A stretch of 54,128 nucleotides of DNA from an uncultured Clostridia bacterium (GTDB taxonomy: Bacteria > Bacillota > Clostridia > TANB77 > CAG-508), in assembly GCA_944390515.1 (NCBI GenBank), contig CALXQG010000001.1, positions 1 through 54,128 of the forward strand, in the 5' to 3' direction. Below, piece after piece: positions 1-10,712 of this stretch (positions are counted from its first letter, which is position 1; every line of letters begins with the position of its first letter). The notes below the pieces were generated by a model that did no database searches, had not been told where the DNA came from, and worked only from the letters and a program-made list of their open reading frames with translations. The position numbers and the translations under genes were made by a program.

Positions 1-62
1 GGACTCGAACCGCGGACAACTTGATTAAAAGTCAAGTGCTCTACCACCTGAGCTAATGACCC
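1..62 (-). tRNA. tRNA-Lys (anticodon UUU), 3' end cut by the window edge
   Basis: The reverse complement reads GGGTCATTAGCTCAGGTGGTAGAGCACTTGACTTTTAATCAAGTTGTCCGCGGTTCGAGTCC. It has a D-arm, an anticodon stem CTTGA/TCAAG with loop CTTTTAA, and the start of a T-arm. Confidence 0.85.
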
Positions 63-228
63 AGATTTCGACTTGCGCTTATTTTGTAAACGCAAGTATT
101 ATTTTAAACTATTTTTTTGTTTTTGTCAATACAATTTGTGAATTTTCTGTGAAAATTTACGATTTTTTTCAAAAAGTCATAATTTTTACAGTTTCTTTCA
201 CGATTATACTTTTCTCTAATGCATTTTA

Positions 229-423
229 TTAGTTCTCATTGATTTTATTTAAAAGCTCCTCTACATCTATTCCATGTACTTCGCAAGCTTCTTCTAAAGT
301 TTCTGCTTGAGAAGCTGGACATCCAAGGCAATGCATTCCTGCTTCCATTAAAATTTCTGCTTTCTCTGGAGCCTTTTCTAGTAATTCTCCAATTCTTGTA
401 TTTTTATCAAATTTCATTATCAA
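229..423 (-). CDS. DUF1858-type small redox-disulfide protein (the hybrid-cluster-protein-associated family)
   Basis: 64 aa. The motif GMHCLGCPASQAETLEEACEVHGID is typical of this family. Confidence 0.7.
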   Translation of the reverse strand: MIMKFDKNTRIGELLEKAPEKAEILMEAGMHCLGCPASQAETLEEACEVHGIDVEELLNKINEN

Positions 424-600
424 AACCTCCTATTGTTTTTAATTAACTTTTAATTCAAGATGTATAATATATAATTTATATCTAGTTATTCACCTTTTTA
501 TTATTGATTCTTAATAATTTTAAATATTTTATCATATTTTTTTTAAAAAGTATAGACAAATTGAAAAATTTGTAGTATATTGGTAGAAATTGGAAAGGTG

Positions 601-756
601 GTGTTGGTTTTCAATTTAGTTGATTTATTCTTTATATTTTTTATAATTCATTTATTTATTACTCTTTATTCAGTTTATTTGTTTTTTAGTAACAAAGTTT
701 TTCATAATCTACAAGGTTCCAAGTTAAATCTTAAATCAAATTTTCATGGCAAATGA
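601..756 (+). CDS. candidate small single-TM protein, translationally coupled to the downstream coupling ATPase
   Basis: The frame is open from 601 to the TGA at 754-756, about 51 codons, which is below the ORF-track cutoff. An SD-like GGAAAGGTGGTG sits at 592-603. Possible starts are GTG 598/601 or TTG 604. The stop overlaps the ATG at 753 as ATGA. The product has a hydrophobic core LVDLFFIFFIIHLFITLYSVYLFF. Confidence 0.35.
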   Translation: MLVFNLVDLFFIFFIIHLFITLYSVYLFFSNKVFHNLQGSKLNLKSNFHGK

Positions 757-2546
757 TTATATTCTGTGGAGGTGTTTTTATTAAACGATTTTTCCTTATT
801 GTTATTTTTTCTTTTATTTATTGTTATCTTGGTTATACTTTATTTTTTGAAATTTATAATTCAAATTCAATAATTATCACATATGGCATTAATCCTTTTG
901 ATATATGTGTAAAAAATGCTGATTTGTGGAATTATATAAAAATAACTTTTATTATTACTTATATTTTTTCTTCATTTATTATATCCAATTTTTTATATTT
1001 TATTTGTTCTTTCATTTTCAAAAATCTAAAAAAAATATTTCTCATTTTTAAAAAAATTATTATTAATTTATCTTTTAAAATATTTAAATATTCTAAAAAT
1101 AAATACTCTATTTTTAATGAAAATCAAAATAACTCAAAAAGAGGACTTAATATTTTTGTTGGAAATTATCTTGAAGATAAAAAGAATGTTTTTTTGAATG
1201 AGAAGAGTTTGTTTCAAAATATTTTAATAACTGGAACTATCGGTACTGGAAAAACTAGTAGTGCAATGTATCCATTTACTAAACAATTAATAGAATATTC
1301 TTGCAGTGATAATAAAAATAAAATGGGAATTTTAGTTTTAGATGTTAAAGGAAATTATTATAAAAAAGTAGTAGAATTTGCTAATGATTGTGATAGAAAT
1401 GAGGATTTAGTTGTTATAAGTCTTGATGGGAAATATAAATATAATCCGTTACACAAACCTAATTTAAAGCCTTCTATATTAGCTAGTAGATTAAAAACTA
1501 TTTTGTTACTTTTCTCGCCTAACAATTCTGAATCATACTGGCTGGATAAAGTAGAACAAATATTAACTGAATGTATTAAGTTATGCAGATTATATAATAA
1601 TAATTACGTTACTTTTGAAGAAATACATAAATTAATTTCTTTAGATAATTATTATTTAGAAAAAATTGAAATTCTAAGGAATAAATTTATCAATAATCTT
1701 TTATCAAATGAAGATATCTATAATTTGCTTACCTCACTAAATTTTTTTCAAAAAGAATTTTTCTCTTTAGATTTGCGTACATTGTCTATTTTAAAATCAG
1801 AAATAACAAGAATAACAAATATATTTGTGTCTGATTATCAAGTATATAAGACATTTAATCCACCTCAGGAAGAATTAAATTTTCTTGGGTTTGAGGATTT
1901 AGTAAACAATGGAAAAATCGTTGTACTTAATATGAATATTTCTGAATACAAAAATTTATCCAAAATAATAGCTACTTATTTAAAGTTAGATTTTCAAACA
2001 GAAGTAATGTCTAGATTAGCAAATAATTTTAAATATTCTAATAGAAATGTTGCTTTTATATCAGATGAATACCATGAATACTGTACCTCTACAGATAGTG
2101 AATTTTATGCACAGAGTAGAGAAGCAAAATGTATTAATATTGTCGCAACTCAAAGCTATACTTCAATTTTAAATACACTTAACAACAAATATGCTGTTGA
2201 TGTAATTATACAGAATTTAGTTAATAAATTCTGGTTTAGAACTGACGATATTTTTACAATTGAAAGCGCTCAAAAGCAAATTGGAAAAGAAGATAAAGAA
2301 AAAACCTTTAAAAGTATTTCTGAAAATGCTAGAGAAACTAATTATAGTTATATTACAAATACTCTCAATTCTTCTGGCTCTAGTATCTCTGAAAGTATTA
2401 GTACACAATTAAGTTATGACTTTGTGTATGACACAAAATTTTTTACTCAAGACTTAGAAAATTTTTGTTCACTTTGTTTTCTTTCTGATGGTAATAAAAT
2501 TTTAACACCACAGATAGTTAAATTAAAACCATATTTTAAAAATTAA
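753..2546 (+). CDS. VirD4/TraG/TraD-type type IV coupling protein (T4CP)-like ATPase
   Basis: The N-terminus has TM helices. Walker A is ITGTIGTGKTSS, Walker B is AFISDEYHEY, and the downstream INIVATQSYTSIL resembles the T4CP Q-motif. Confidence 0.75.
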   Translation: MIIFCGGVFIKRFFLIVIFSFIYCYLGYTLFFEIYNSNSIIITYGINPFDICVKNADLWNYIKITFIITYIFSSFIISNFLYFICSFIFKNLKKIFLIFKKIIINLSFKIFKYSKNKYSIFNENQNNSKRGLNIFVGNYLEDKKNVFLNEKSLFQNILITGTIGTGKTSSAMYPFTKQLIEYSCSDNKNKMGILVLDVKGNYYKKVVEFANDCDRNEDLVVISLDGKYKYNPLHKPNLKPSILASRLKTILLLFSPNNSESYWLDKVEQILTECIKLCRLYNNNYVTFEEIHKLISLDNYYLEKIEILRNKFINNLLSNEDIYNLLTSLNFFQKEFFSLDLRTLSILKSEITRITNIFVSDYQVYKTFNPPQEELNFLGFEDLVNNGKIVVLNMNISEYKNLSKIIATYLKLDFQTEVMSRLANNFKYSNRNVAFISDEYHEYCTSTDSEFYAQSREAKCINIVATQSYTSILNTLNNKYAVDVIIQNLVNKFWFRTDDIFTIESAQKQIGKEDKEKTFKSISENARETNYSYITNTLNSSGSSISESISTQLSYDFVYDTKFFTQDLENFCSLCFLSDGNKILTPQIVKLKPYFKN

Positions 2547-2567
2547 TATTTATTAGGAGGATTTATT

Positions 2568-2918
2568 ATGAATAGAACAAAAAATAAATTTATTATTTTA
2601 TATACTTTTTTCTTATTTATTATTATATTTTTTACTTTTTTTATAACTAAAAGTTCAGCAGCTTTGTTTGATAACACTCCTGAATTAGTAAAAACTTTAA
2701 ATACAGCTTTTGAGGATATTGAAGGTTGGTTGTTAACACTTGCCACACCTGCTGCTGCAGTTGCTGTTGGTGTTGGTGTTTTTATGAAAAAATTTAGTTT
2801 TGGTGATGAAGAAAGAATTAGAATATCAAAGAAATTAATTAGAGGATCTCTTTTTTCCTATGGTTTTATTTTAGCAATTAATTTGATATTATCTGCTATT
2901 CGTTCTTTAATTGAATAG
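2568..2918 (+). CDS. VirB2/TrbC-like T4SS pilin candidate
   Basis: 116 aa. It has a signal/TM segment, then TPAAAVAVGVGVFMKKFSFGDEERIRISKKLIRGSLFSYGFILAINLIL, which is two hydrophobic helices joined by a short charged loop. SD GGAGG lies 7 nt upstream. Confidence 0.55.
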   Translation: MNRTKNKFIILYTFFLFIIIFFTFFITKSSAALFDNTPELVKTLNTAFEDIEGWLLTLATPAAAVAVGVGVFMKKFSFGDEERIRISKKLIRGSLFSYGFILAINLILSAIRSLIE

Positions 2919-2940
2919 TATTTATTATAGGAGGTATATT

Positions 2941-3831
2941 TTGGAAGAAAGTGCAACAAATATTTCTAATGTTTCTCAAGTAATTATTGATACAATTAAT
3001 AATTTATTAAATACTTTGTTTTCATCTATTGATAATAGTGTTTATGATACTCTTGATAATCTTGCATTTATTAATGTTCATTCATTTAATAATAGTTTTA
3101 TAAATGATATTTTTAATCATAATTCTGGAAATGGATTAATTATAATTGCTAATTCTTTACTTTTGGCTGTTTGTTTATATTATTGTTTTAAATTATTATA
3201 TTCATATTTTACAGGAATTCAAATAGAAAGGCCTTATCAATTTGTTTTTAAATTACTTATATTTGGTATTTTTATTAATTGTTCACATTTTATATGTGAA
3301 ACTCTTATATATTTTCCGTCTGTAATTGCTGCTGCAATAAGAGATGTTGGTCAATCAGTCCTTGGAGAGGAAATATCTTTTTCTAACTTAATTTCTAGCC
3401 TAAATTCAGTAGTCTCAGTAGACACAACTTCATTTAATGTTTTCTCTTTTGATGGTTTAATAAAAAGTCTGACGTCAATTAGTTTTATTAATTTACTATT
3501 ATCTTACTCTTTGAGGTATATCATGATTCAAGTTCTAATCTTTTTAACTCCATTCGCTTTTCTTACATTAATAAATAATTCTACTTCTTACTTTTTTAAG
3601 GCATGGCTAAAAATATTTATATCATTATTATTTTTAGAAATATATATTTCTCTTGTTTTATTAATAGCTTTTGCACTTAATCTTGATAACGGAGAAATTG
3701 TATCCAAATTATTATGCATTGGATCTATTTACGCTTTAATAAAAGGAAATATTTATGTCCAACATTTTGTAGGAGGAATTTCCACAGATATTTCTGCTAA
3801 TATTAATTTATTAAAATTTAAGAGTAATTAG
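2941..3831 (+). CDS. polytopic membrane protein, VirB6/TrbL-like
   Basis: At least 5 predicted TM helices. It sits between the pilin-like and VirB3-like genes. The likely start is TTG 2941, 6 nt after AGGAGG at 2929-2934. The tracked ORF start at 2911 lies upstream of that SD. Confidence 0.55.
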   Translation: MEESATNISNVSQVIIDTINNLLNTLFSSIDNSVYDTLDNLAFINVHSFNNSFINDIFNHNSGNGLIIIANSLLLAVCLYYCFKLLYSYFTGIQIERPYQFVFKLLIFGIFINCSHFICETLIYFPSVIAAAIRDVGQSVLGEEISFSNLISSLNSVVSVDTTSFNVFSFDGLIKSLTSISFINLLLSYSLRYIMIQVLIFLTPFAFLTLINNSTSYFFKAWLKIFISLLFLEIYISLVLLIAFALNLDNGEIVSKLLCIGSIYALIKGNIYVQHFVGGISTDISANINLLKFKSN

Positions 3832-3858
3832 ATTTTATGAGAAAGGAATAAGATTTAT

Positions 3859-4155
3859 ATGAAATTTATATTTCCACAAAATTATAATTTTAAAAGCAAA
3901 CTTTTGGGTTTTATTGATTATACAACAATAATTTTAAATATCATTTGGGGATTTATTATTTTTTCAATAACATATTTTTTAATTCCAAATCTTACTATTA
4001 GAATTGGCGTTTTTATAGTTTTCTTTTTGCCTTTTTCTCTTATTAGCATCATCGGCTTTAATCATGAAAGATTTATTTATATTATTATTTATTTATACTC
4101 TTATTTACATTCTCCTAAAGTTTATTTGTATAAAAAAGATAATAATAAAAATTAG
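3859..4155 (+). CDS. small 2-TM protein, VirB3/PrgI/TcpE-like
   Basis: 98 aa. A short polar N-terminus (FKSKLLGFIDYTT) is followed by two TM helices. The call rests on its position in the T4SS-like operon. Confidence 0.45.
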   Translation: MKFIFPQNYNFKSKLLGFIDYTTIILNIIWGFIIFSITYFLIPNLTIRIGVFIVFFLPFSLISIIGFNHERFIYIIIYLYSYLHSPKVYLYKKDNNKN

Positions 4156-4252
4156 ATTTAAAAGTATTTTTTAAATTTTCTGTTTTTAGATATATTTCCT
4201 CATTTATCTTTCTTTTTCTACAATTTTCTATTGTTTTTTTGTTATTTTTAGA

Positions 4253-4281
4253 TTGTAAATTTAATTATAAAATGATATAAT
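4253..4281 (+). promoter_or_regulatory. sigma-A-type promoter for dnaB-like/dnaI
   Basis: TTGTAA (4253-4258), a 17-nt spacer, then TATAAT (4276-4281). Confidence 0.5.
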
Positions 4282-4314
4282 CCTATTTATACTTTTATGG
4301 AGGGAGATTTTATA

Positions 4315-5283
4315 ATGAGACTAGAATGTGCAGATTTATCATCACTTTTTTCAAATACTATATTACCAGATATTTTTTTCTCGGAATATTTATCAGAGGC
4401 AAGTGGAGACTTTATAAAAGTATATTTATACATGGTTTTTTTGTCAAAATATGATAAAGAAATTAAAGTAAATGATTTATCTAAAAAACTAGTTCTACCT
4501 TTAAAAACAATACAAGATGCCGTAAAGTACTGGGAAGAACAGGGGCTAATAACTAAGAAAAATACTGGCTTTATTATAAATAGTATCCAAGAAATAGAAT
4601 TGCATAAATTATATAAGCCAAAAACAGCCTTATCTGCAGAGCAAATACAAAAATCTGCTGCTAATCAAAAACGTGCTGAAGCTATTGAACATATTAATAA
4701 TAAATATTTTTCTGGACTTATGCCTACTACTTGGTATCCAGAAATTGAACTATGGTTTAAAAAGTATAATTTTGATGAAGAAGTTATGATTGCATTGTTT
4801 GGATATTGCTTTGATAAATCAGCATTACATAAAAATTATGTTCAAACTGTTGCAGAAGCTTGGAATAAAAATAACATAAAGACATTTAATGATTTAGATA
4901 TATATTATGAAAAACAAGAAAAATTAAAAATAATAGCAAAGACAATTACTAAAAAGCTAGGTTTAGCTCGTGCCTTAACTCAATATGAATATGGTTATAT
5001 AGAAAAATGGCATATTGATTATGGATATGGTATGGATATTATTGAAATAGCTTTAAAGAAAACAGCTGCAAAATCAAATCCAAATTTTGTTTATATAGAT
5101 ACTCTTTTAACAGATTGGCATACAAGAGGATTTAAAACTGCTGAAGCTATTCAAAATTTCTTAAATCAAGTAAAAGAAAAAAAGAAAAACATAAAGAAAT
5201 TAGAAAAAGATACAGGATATGATAAATATGACCAAAGAACGTATGATAATCTAGATAATTTATATGCAAATATGAAAATATAA
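4315..5283 (+). CDS. DnaD-domain replication initiation protein (DnaB/DnaD-like helicase co-loader)
   Basis: The product has winged-helix and DnaD-like repeat regions (YVQTVAEAWNKNNIKT, YIDTLLTDWHTRGFKT). The start is ATG 4315, preceded by GGAGGGAG. It lies directly upstream of dnaI, as in the B. subtilis dnaB-dnaI operon. Confidence 0.75.
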   Translation: MRLECADLSSLFSNTILPDIFFSEYLSEASGDFIKVYLYMVFLSKYDKEIKVNDLSKKLVLPLKTIQDAVKYWEEQGLITKKNTGFIINSIQEIELHKLYKPKTALSAEQIQKSAANQKRAEAIEHINNKYFSGLMPTTWYPEIELWFKKYNFDEEVMIALFGYCFDKSALHKNYVQTVAEAWNKNNIKTFNDLDIYYEKQEKLKIIAKTITKKLGLARALTQYEYGYIEKWHIDYGYGMDIIEIALKKTAAKSNPNFVYIDTLLTDWHTRGFKTAEAIQNFLNQVKEKKKNIKKLEKDTGYDKYDQRTYDNLDNLYANMKI

Positions 5284-5313
5284 TAATTTTGATGATACAA
5301 GGAGAAATGATTA

Positions 5314-6315
5314 ATGTCAGATATCATTTTAAAAGATATTTTAGCAGAATATAATAAAAAGAAAATTAATGCTGAATATGAAGCCACAAAAAGGAAACAA
5401 GATTTATACAGTAAATATCCTAAACTACAAGAATTTGATGACAAATTAACTAGTCTTGCAATTTCTACAACAAAATCTTTAATAGATAATAATGATAAAA
5501 AATTATTGGATAAATTAAATGAAGATATTAAAAATTTAAAGAAGGAAAAAGAAAAATTACTAACTTCTCTTAATATACCAAAGGATTATTTCAGACCAAA
5601 ATATGAGTGTGAGTTATGTAAAGATACAGGTTATATTACAAATAATGATTATTCATCTTCTATGTGTACTTGCTTAAGACAAAAGATGTATGATGAATTA
5701 TACAATAAAGCTAATATATCAAATCTAAACACACAAAATTTTGATAATTTTACAGATTTGTTTTATTCTGACGAGAAGGATGAAGAAAAATACCATAGTA
5801 AACTTTCGCCCCGCGAAAATATAAATATAATAAAAAAAATATGTTTAAAATTTATTGATAATTTTGATAATAAAGACCAAAATAATTTATTATTTACTGG
5901 AAATACTGGTCTTGGAAAAACTTTTTTATCTAGTTGTATTGCAAATGAAATCCTAAAAAAAGGTAAAAATGTATTATATCAAACTGCTCCTGTAATGTTA
6001 GACACTATAATAGATTATAGATTTGGCAAAATTAAATCTTCTAATATTATAGATAGTATTTTAAATGTTGATTTATTAATTATTGATGATTTAGGAACAG
6101 AATGTATTAATAATTTGAAGTTTACCGAACTTTTTAATATTATAAATACTCGACTTTTAAATCAAAATAAAATAACTAAAACAATTATTTCTACTAATTT
6201 AAGTTTAAAAAATTTATATTCAAATTATGATGAAAGAATTGTTTCTCGTTTAGTTGGAAATTATGATATTTGTTACTTTTTTGGTGATGACATTCGTTTT
6301 AAAAAAAATAGATGA
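5314..6315 (+). CDS. dnaI: helicase loader DnaI/DnaC-type AAA+ ATPase
   Basis: It has an N-terminal Cys cluster CELCKDTGY...CTC, Walker A GNTGLGKTFL and Walker B LLIIDDLG. Confidence 0.8.
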   Translation: MSDIILKDILAEYNKKKINAEYEATKRKQDLYSKYPKLQEFDDKLTSLAISTTKSLIDNNDKKLLDKLNEDIKNLKKEKEKLLTSLNIPKDYFRPKYECELCKDTGYITNNDYSSSMCTCLRQKMYDELYNKANISNLNTQNFDNFTDLFYSDEKDEEKYHSKLSPRENINIIKKICLKFIDNFDNKDQNNLLFTGNTGLGKTFLSSCIANEILKKGKNVLYQTAPVMLDTIIDYRFGKIKSSNIIDSILNVDLLIIDDLGTECINNLKFTELFNIINTRLLNQNKITKTIISTNLSLKNLYSNYDERIVSRLVGNYDICYFFGDDIRFKKNR

Positions 6316-6347
6316 AGTACATTTTATTTGTACTTCATTTATTTTTC
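6312..6347. terminator. bidirectional intrinsic terminator between dnaI and gyrA
   Basis: A 9-bp stem ATGAAGTAC/GTACTTCAT with a 9-nt loop, followed by a T-rich tail. Confidence 0.6.
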
Positions 6348-9689: not shown

Positions 9690-10712
9690 TTATAATAATT
9701 TTAATTTATTATTTATAATTAAATATTCTTTTCTAATTTTTTTATTAATGAAATTACTTTTATTGTTTTTATTAATTAATTTATTATAACTATTTCTATA
9801 ATTTAATTCTCCCAAAATATTAAAATCATTAAAGATATTTTTTAATATTTTATATTCAATTGAATTAATATCTTTTTTATTAAAAACAATGCTAAATTTA
9901 TTTTTGTTTATATTATTTTCATTTATTAAAATATCTAGTAATTTTATTGATTTATTTATTTCCAACAAATTTGTCCCTGAAATAAATATTGTAATATTAC
10001 TAATATTTATTGAATTTTTAATTAACTCATAATTTTTTGAAGTATTATCAATAATTATAAAATCGTATTTATTTTTTAATTTATTAACTAATAAATTAAT
10101 TTGTTCTAACATTAAATTTGTTTTTAAATTATTATTACTTTCTAAAAACGAGTATATATTTAATAAATCTATTTTTTTGTTAATTTTAATAATATAATTA
10201 TTGAAGTTAATTTCTTCACTTATTATATTTAATATATTATTTTTCTTATTATTTTTATTTGGATAAATTGAGACACCAAAAATAGTATGAATAGAATTAT
10301 TTAATGAATCTAAATCAATGATTAAAATTTTGTTATTAAAGAGACTATTAATTTTTGATAAATTAACAGTTATAATACTTTTACCAGTTCCTCCAGGGCC
10401 AATTATAGAAATTATTTTGTTCTTATTAGGACTGCTATTTTTATTTTCTACTAAATTAATTAATTTGTATTTTTTTATTTTATTTATTATTCTATTTTTA
10501 TTAATAAATAATTTTTTATTTTTTATTTTGTTTATTAAATTATTTTTACTTTCTTTTTCTAATATTATCTTTTTCAAATTATTTATTTCTTCTTTTAAAT
10601 AATCTTCATTACATTTATTATTATAATTAATTAAATTTATTAAATCTTTAATTTCTATTTTATTATTATAAAATATTTTATAAGCACCTTTTTTCAATAA
10701 ACTTTCTTCCAT
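9690..10712 (-). CDS. ParA/MinD/CpaE(TadZ)-like P-loop ATPase, probably longer at the N-terminus
   Basis: The P-loop is IISIIGPGGTGKS. The frame stays open upstream of the tracked Met to about 11018. That extension reads like a receiver-type domain (DIDIIIISE...SEIKIIIFL). It contains no ATG, GTG or TTG. Confidence 0.7.
   Translation of the reverse strand: MEESLLKKGAYKIFYNNKIEIKDLINLINYNNKCNEDYLKEEINNLKKIILEKESKNNLINKIKNKKLFINKNRIINKIKKYKLINLVENKNSSPNKNKIISIIGPGGTGKSIITVNLSKINSLFNNKILIIDLDSLNNSIHTIFGVSIYPNKNNKKNNILNIISEEINFNNYIIKINKKIDLLNIYSFLESNNNLKTNLMLEQINLLVNKLKNKYDFIIIDNTSKNYELIKNSINISNITIFISGTNLLEINKSIKLLDILINENNINKNKFSIVFNKKDINSIEYKILKNIFNDFNILGELNYRNSYNKLINKNNKSNFINKKIRKEYLIINNKLKLL

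Follow-up and report, generated by a model that had tools for sequence, protein, structure and literature searches.

Two-partner type IV coupling proteins (T4CPs) are known from the pair TraG and TraJ of the IncHI1 plasmid R27 and from plasmid pIP501, where a TraJ without a transmembrane domain (TMD) is joined by the small membrane protein TraI (PMC7434980). In Patescibacteria, chromosomal and mostly relaxase-less type IV secretion systems (T4SSs) derived from the MPF-FATA class were described (Quinonero-Coronel et al. 2025, PMC12102498). Weak translation starts, in turn, are documented for infC, cvfC1, ccpN and citZ of Staphylococcus aureus, where AUU or AUA starts with extended Shine-Dalgarno (SD) sequences were verified by ribosome profiling and where AUU and AUA reporters reached about 10–30% of AUG output (PMC13009471). 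All three themes bear on the DNA analysed here, 54,128 nucleotides (nt) of contig CALXQG010000001.1 (GenBank assembly GCA_944390515.1) from an uncultured Clostridia bacterium of the order TANB77 and family CAG-508; this whole stretch is referred to as the window. Near its left end, a small open reading frame (ORF) adjoins the gene of a VirD4-type coupling ATPase, and genes for a pilin, a VirB6-like and a VirB3-like protein follow.

The reading that we favor, with a probability of roughly 75% for its parts taken jointly, is that the small ORF represents a split-off N-terminal transmembrane (TM) module of the adjoining T4CP, that the T4CP of this genus usually starts at ATT or ATA behind an extended SD sequence, and that positions 553 to 4155 constitute one operon, a compact T4SS gene cluster driven by a single promoter. 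As in R27 and pIP501, a VirD4-family ATPase and a small membrane protein are encoded side by side and together resemble a one-piece T4CP; this likeness is one of arrangement. The partner in the window has one helix and about 50 amino acids, whereas R27 TraJ has roughly 200 amino acids and up to five helices, and the ATPase keeps two N-terminal hydrophobic segments, whereas pIP501 TraJ has no TMD. Unlike in both plasmid systems, fusions mark the partner as a piece of the T4CP, and the locus is chromosomal, with no relaxase found.

Judged from its conservation, the small ORF is a genuine coding gene. In this species it runs from GTG 601 to a TGA at 754–756, and an in-frame TTG at 580 would give a product of 58 amino acids. 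It was intact in all 19 genus loci that cover the upstream region, with 60–87% identity (tblastn), a conservation about equal to that of the T4CP. Among 30 distinct sequences, the ratio of non-synonymous to synonymous changes (pN/pS) was 0.34 in frame as compared to 0.78 and 1.97 off frame, and variability by codon position followed the order 3 > 1 > 2. The element AAGG(T/C)GGTG at its start was conserved across the 19 aligned genus loci, and the homologous position in more distant loci reads GGAGGTG(A). An alternative start, TTG 604, is specific to this species. The hydropathy profile of the product showed one hydrophobic segment, residues 1–31, followed by a tail with a charge of +4, in which a QG-KL motif is invariant. 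The positive-inside rule would predict an N-out, C-in orientation. A preliminary description of the window had placed a TM-encoding ORF of 51 codons exactly at these coordinates and had proposed to look for it upstream of T4CP homologues in related genomes; our data confirm its position and its presence in relatives and predict one helix.

The gene has largely escaped annotation. Its exact sequence, in any start variant, was absent from a collection of 15 billion proteins, and a word-based search for homologues returned one cluster only. An exhaustive profile search against 1.84 billion representatives retrieved 132 unnamed clusters, mostly of 41–100 amino acids; no member carries a name or a domain, and gene finders mostly leave the ORF uncalled. 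A conserved subunit of a secretion ATPase would thus have been overlooked, as automatic gene calling hardly ever reports this microprotein.

The relation to the T4CP is seen in lineages where both parts form one protein. In family f3 (loci L029–L031), a module of helix and SGSK(L/I) motif is the in-frame N-terminus of a T4CP of about 600–620 codons. With a hidden Markov model built without the f3 sequences, the T4CPs of L031 and L030 ranked at the top of 13,519 ORFs (E = 1.4e-4 and 3.8e-4), and the next best ORF had E = 0.094. The metagenomic proteins P0286 and P0298 join the module in frame to the N-terminal part of a genus-like T4CP, which in both extends through the Walker A motif. The small-ORF profile found them with E = 2.3e-12 and 1.1e-10, respectively, among 1.84 billion proteins, and the alignment was collinear. 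P0298 (163 amino acids) has the small-ORF helix in place of the first T4CP TM helix rather than in addition to it, which suggests that either helix can fill this position in the membrane domain. Families f4 and f5 have a separate small protein with two helices and 75–80 amino acids. That the parts are joined in some lineages and split in others is standard evidence for two products acting as one unit. Such natural fission and fusion offer a clean way to ask how the membrane domains of T4CPs assemble.

A further result concerned the start of the T4CP. The preliminary description had pointed to an ATGA, lying within AAATGATT, in which the stop of the small ORF overlaps ATG 753 of the T4CP, and had found no SD in front of this ATG; both statements were correct, the preceding sequence being TTTTCATGGCAA. 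It overlooked, however, a GGAGGTG that begins 12 nt downstream of ATG 753 and ends 5 nt before an in-frame ATT at 780. Start codons and overlaps were counted in 36 distinct genus-level loci, which are kin, so that these counts are not independent events. The ATGA overlap was found in one of them, that of this species. In the other loci TAA or TAG closes the small ORF, which stands in any frame relative to the T4CP and is separated from it by anything between a 4-nt overlap and 122 nt; five loci of one subclade show an ATAA overlap made of the TAA of the small ORF and an ATA of the T4CP. The conserved feature is the isoleucine codon that opens the motif IKRF. It was ATT in 23 loci, ATA in 9 and ATC in 1, and 31 of the 36 had an SD 5-mer ahead of it at a sharply peaked spacing, with a modal gap of 6 nt from the end of the 5-mer. 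Extended forms of this SD were GGAGGTG, AGGAGG, GAGGTGA and GAAGGTGA.

In 19 of the 36 loci, the stretch between the upstream stop and the tenth codon after the isoleucine codon held no in-frame ATG, GTG or TTG, and in 7 more the only canonical codon was a GTG within the SD itself, so that 26 had no usable canonical start. Two loci (L016 and L044) even have an in-frame stop one or two codons upstream of the isoleucine codon. Counted from this codon, pN/pS was 0.38 over 46 codons in 31 sequences, as compared to 1.0 and 1.5 off frame. Since coding selection begins at the isoleucine codon, we could rule out a canonical start further downstream. The genes for the pilin, the VirB6-like protein, the VirB3-like protein, DnaD and DnaI in the same loci served as controls, and their starts were canonical in 140 of 140 cases. 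A general habit of an AT-rich genome could be ruled out as well: a genome-wide scan of SD-led ORFs of at least 100 codons without canonical alternative gave ATG 219 times, TTG 30 times, GTG 14 times and ATT and ATA once each, and the lone ATT/ATA site, that of a CpaE/TadZ-like gene beside the VirB4-like gene, speaks against such a habit.

The start of the T4CP shares with the near-cognate starts of S. aureus (PMC13009471) the isoleucine codon, the long SD, the fixed spacing and the conservation across species. It differs in that the evidence is comparative, that the gene encodes a secretion ATPase and that the weak start lies at a gene-fission junction; moreover, ATT or ATA starts are also seen at the upstream small ORF of some relatives. 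The T4CP would add a comparative case to the few near-cognate starts documented in bacteria. A start at ATT or ATA would also mean that standard annotation truncates, extends or mis-starts the T4CP in most relatives.

The layout of the genes was in line with a single operon. Its promoter, with a 17-nt spacer between the −35 and −10 boxes, was retained in all 19 aligned genus loci as GTATAGACA and TAT-N-AT. The gaps between the genes, announced as 21–27 nt in the preliminary description, measured 21 nt from the T4CP stop at 2546 to the pilin ATG at 2568, 22 nt from the pilin stop at 2918 to the TTG at 2941 of the VirB6-like gene, and 27 nt from the stop of the latter at 3831 to the ATG at 3859 of the VirB3-like gene. 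Other points of that description stood as well. The TTG at 2941 follows an AGGAGG, which we read as AGGAGGT, and is where public gene calls begin, too; the promoter at 4253, before a gene that the description called dnaB-like and that we read as dnaD, was present and conserved in relatives, being retained in nearly all of 25 related loci as ATTGTAA...TGATATAAT; and our scan, like the earlier inspection, found no terminator ahead of it. No terminator-like site occurred between 601 and 4296, the first one being at 6304–6346, and the spacer between the VirB3-like gene and dnaD (4140–4300) folded no better than shuffled sequences (z = −0.5). With no terminator after the VirB3-like gene, read-through into dnaD-dnaI is possible.

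That the proteins downstream of the small ORF would match T4SS profiles had been assumed from the start. This held for the T4CP and, by way of their orthologues, for the pilin and the VirB6-like protein, whereas for the VirB3-like protein the matches were weak. The T4CP matched TrwB_AAD_bind (PF10412; 32.9 bits, cut-off 20.5, E = 4e-8) and TraG-D_C (PF12696; 22.4 bits, cut-off 22, E = 1e-4). Its translation contains a Walker A motif GTGKTS and a Walker B-like FISDEYHE, and Kyte-Doolittle analysis gave two hydrophobic segments, at residues of about 10–34 and 64–89, to which the small ORF adds a helix. The pilin of the window stayed below the cut-off for T4SS_pilin (PF18895; 22.7 bits, cut-off 26.6, E = 1e-4), and its orthologues from four families matched this profile in 8 of 8 cases (best E = 2.2e-8) and TrbC/VirB2 (PF04956) in 5 of 8 (E = 3e-6). 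The VirB6-like protein of the window had no Pfam match of its own and its AlphaFold2 (AF2) model, with a mean predicted local distance difference test score (pLDDT) of 49.8, was unusable; six of eight orthologues matched TrbL/VirB6 (PF04610; best E = 7.8e-7). Searches of the PDB by sequence, with the VirB3-like profile, the VirB6-like profile and the T4CP, gave no meaningful match.

Several observations weigh against parts of this reading. The homology of the f3 module is weak by score; its significance is limited to a small database, and the case for it depends in part on position. We infer the physical association of small protein and T4CP from one kind of sequence evidence, the in-frame fusions. 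The window retains ATG 753, so the ATT start is not forced in this species. As to the small ORF, its GTG 601 is shared by the window and nearer relatives, yet it lies inside the SD-like element, and more distant loci begin the ORF later: by two codons, at ATT or ATA, in L048, L050, L053, L054, L055 and L060, by two codons, at ATG, in L058, and by three codons, at ATA, in L047. All these late starts follow a canonical GGAGGTG, and in three of the loci an in-frame stop bars an earlier start. The exact start of the small ORF is therefore uncertain. Its ATT or ATA starts in at least seven species imply, at the same time, that both halves of the split gene would have near-cognate starts in parts of the clade. 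Finally, only 6 of 10 orthologues of the VirB3-like protein matched PrgI (PF12666), and weakly (best E = 0.006); hhalign against PrgI of pCF10 and Foldseek against the PDB (best E = 2.1) gave no support. Its AF2 model (pLDDT 74) showed a confident TM hairpin at 21–41/45–65. With PrgI matches this weak and no support from the PDB by sequence either, the VirB3/PrgI assignment is probable and not firm.

The small ORF might instead encode an independent TM peptide whose sole link to the T4CP is termination-reinitiation coupling at the ATGA, with translation of the T4CP beginning at ATG 753. We regard this as possible, though doubtful. The overlap is real, and ATG 753 is where public gene calls begin the T4CP. 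Overlaps of the ATGA or TTGA type recur in two other families, f5 and f4 (L021–L024, L028), and this recurrent close apposition of stop and start makes coupling plausible as a general theme. For the genus itself, however, an overlap in one of 36 loci, amid spacers of such different length and in all three frames, is hard to reconcile with it; the SD and the ATT downstream of ATG 753 are left unexplained, and the in-frame fusions show both proteins to be part of one unit. The label of classic ATGA coupling, which the preliminary description had used, was not supported: among the genus-level loci the overlap is unique to this species, and the conserved signal is the SD with ATT or ATA. In the window, both ATT 780 and ATG 753 may serve, and their products would differ by nine non-conserved residues.

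A role as regulatory leader peptide, or upstream ORF, in which translation of the small ORF rather than its product would tune T4CP expression, is in our view very improbable. A short ORF that is first in its operon and lies beside the weak start codon of a T4CP would suit this role. A leader would not be expected to have an amino acid sequence under purifying selection, a TM helix and an invariant QG-KL, nor a spacing to the T4CP that is not conserved, and in several lineages the peptide is a covalent part of the T4CP. Programmed recoding, by read-through or frameshift, would make one polypeptide of both frames; alternatively, the split could reflect a decaying pseudogene. A single in-frame TAA separates the frames in L003, L004, L006, L007, L010 and L011, and fused versions exist elsewhere, both of which would be in line with recoding. 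Frame offsets of 0, +1 and +2 were all found, though, with variable spacers and no conserved slippery site, and almost every locus has a strong SD ahead of the second frame. Decay is at odds with the purifying selection that acts on either half in more than 30 species. On these grounds, we rejected recoding and pseudogene alike and grant them next to no credence.

In the favored reading, the operon would supply one half of a T4SS, namely its membrane components and its substrate receptor; the system is old and chromosomal and apparently lacks a relaxase. The small protein and the T4CP, as the two halves of one unit, would be translated separately, and the former would insert beside the two-helix anchor of the latter, like the membrane partners of other two-partner T4CPs. 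The near-cognate ATT or ATA start should hold T4CP synthesis well below the level of a gene with an ATG. The T4CP would be made at a low rate, next to a pilin with a strong SD and an ATG. ATG 753, acquired in this species, may add termination-reinitiation coupling and a form that is nine residues longer.

Table 1. Coordinates of features in the window.
Feature	Position	Strand	Basis or remark
tRNA gene, 3'-truncated by the window edge	1..62	-	Rfam tRNA, 46.3 bits
DUF1858 gene, flanks the operon	229-423	-	
Operon promoter, −35 TAGACA (553-558), 17-nt spacer, −10 TATATT (576-581)	553..581	+	consensus scan
Extended SD-like element GGAAAGGTGGTG, contains conserved GTG 601	592..603	+	alignment of genus loci
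Small ORF, 50-51 amino acids, one TM helix and basic tail with QGSKLNLKS	601..756	+	conservation, pN/pS, profile search
VirD4-type coupling ATPase (T4CP), 597 amino acids from ATG 753, 588 from ATT 780	753..2546	+	
ATGA stop/start overlap	753..756	+	read from sequence; species-specific
SD GGAGGTG inside the annotated T4CP frame, predicted to serve ATT 780	768..774	+	conserved in loci
Conserved ATT, probable near-cognate T4CP start codon	780..782	+	aligned codon statistics
VirB2-type T4SS pilin precursor, signal/TM segment and two TM segments	2568..2918	+	Pfam and orthologues
VirB6/TrbL-like polytopic membrane protein, 296 amino acids, TTG start	2941..3831	+	by orthologues
Probable PrgI/VirB3-like two-TM protein, 98 amino acids	3859..4155	+	weak orthologue matches
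dnaD-dnaI promoter, TTGTAA-17-TATAAT with upstream TG	4253..4281	+	promoter scan and conservation
VirB4-like ATPase, displaced partner of the left module	11027..12871	-	PF19044 1e-20, AAA_10 4e-13

By gene content, the T4SS of Patescibacteria (PMC12102498) is considered the closest described system. Both share VirB4, T4CP, VirB6, a VirB2-type pilin (PF18895) and, tentatively for the window, VirB3/PrgI and the lack of a relaxase, as well as a location near dnaA/dnaN/rnpA and a T4CP that is often apart from virB4. The window differs in its origin from a clostridial gut order with small genomes and in that the T4CP heads an operon with pilin, VirB6 and VirB3. Neither a small T4CP partner nor a non-canonical start was reported for Patescibacteria (PMC12102498). 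With pCF10 of Enterococcus, the MPF-FATA prototype, the window has the same functional classes and the order prgH-prgI, that is, VirB6-like then VirB3-like, in common. Unlike in the window, VirB4 follows VirB3 in pCF10, which has a relaxase and no VirB2-type pilin. A comparison by hhalign of the VirB3-like and VirB6-like profiles with PrgI and PrgH gave a probability of 0.2%, and a BLASTP comparison of the T4CP with PcfC returned no match.

The T4CP was found in 21 of 24 genomes of the genus and in three of four other families, and its identity fell with distance from 64–82% over 45–59% to about 39%. The order DUF1858 (−), small ORF where present, T4CP, pilin, VirB6, VirB3, dnaD and dnaI was identical in 12 genomes from three other families. 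A VirB4-like ATPase was present in all 41 genomes of the order, and across the genus its gene lies about 10 kb from the T4CP gene on the opposite strand. In the window, about 6.9 kb separate the VirB3-like and VirB4-like genes, which are on opposite strands; the VirB4 partner was thus where it had been proposed, about 7 kb away on the other strand. This separation had been called atypical. It is real, and it is ancient: the conserved order and the presence of VirB4 in 41 of 41 genomes make it an inherited trait. The tRNA at the left end of the window also stands upstream of the T4CP in two f3 loci (L030 and L031). Four relaxase Pfam families had no match in the genome, which is roughly 70% complete, nor had CagE/TrbE/VirB4 (PF03135). 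The shared gene order, the spread of T4CP and VirB4, the tRNA neighbor and the negative relaxase result together point to an old chromosomal system rather than to an integrative or mobile element. By analogy to Patescibacteria, a non-conjugative, contact-dependent function would be our best guess for this T4SS.

The window covers a replication-origin region with 24% G+C, with rnpA-yidC-jag on the plus strand, dnaA-dnaN-recF-gyrB and gyrA on the minus strand, and a DnaD-domain gene and a DnaI/DnaC-like gene at 4297–6315. The source genome comprises 1.08 Mb in 75 contigs. TANB77 is an uncultured, low-GC gut order with reduced genomes, and the response to checkpoint immunotherapy has been linked to it through a different pilus of the Tad type (PMC11680825). 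Related contigs derived from gut metagenomes of humans, chickens, rabbits and others. In the literature, we found no paper on the origin-proximal T4SS of TANB77.

A wider hypothesis, which we hold to be rather unlikely, would have the T4CP of this order split and re-fuse repeatedly at one short linker, the junction turning after fission into an extended SD with an AUU or AUA start, and would see in near-cognate initiation a small translation-level regulon whose members are the small ORF in several species, the T4CP throughout the genus and, in this genome, the CpaE/TadZ-like ATPase. If true, it would couple synthesis of the secretion apparatus to the fidelity of initiation, that is, to the IF3 level or the growth state.

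Some minor observations concerned the surroundings. The CpaE/TadZ-like ATPase (9690–10988, minus strand) has an intact receiver-like N-terminal extension, which opens with ATT ATA, 4–7 nt after AAAGGAG, and has no canonical start; the 17 related loci with a homologue have the same N-terminus (MKKIITAIGNE...) with an ATG available. A second, distant VirB4-like paralogue of about 670 amino acids and 27–30% identity is encoded outside the window (G000:C5:10857-12764, minus strand), and almost all genomes of the order have one. An ORF of 226 amino acids (12934–13614, minus strand), which precedes the VirB4-like gene, had no Pfam match. In Patescibacteria, TrsD is remotely like the N-terminus of VirB4 and is often encoded beside virB4 (PMC12102498); by analogy, this ORF may be TrsD-like.

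At the left edge, the tRNA fragment was the sole match of positions 1–4400 to known RNA families or leader structures. DUF1858 is a conserved left neighbor in families f4 and f5, and in f3 the tRNA alone adjoins. In three f3 genomes (L029–L031), a Spo0A-box-like TGTCGAA precedes the T4CP promoter, about 100–130 nt upstream of the fused T4CP. In the window, none was found near 553 and five elsewhere, as compared to about 1.8 expected, one of them at the promoter of the VirB4 module; Spo0A is encoded in the genome (G000:C4:16298-16609).

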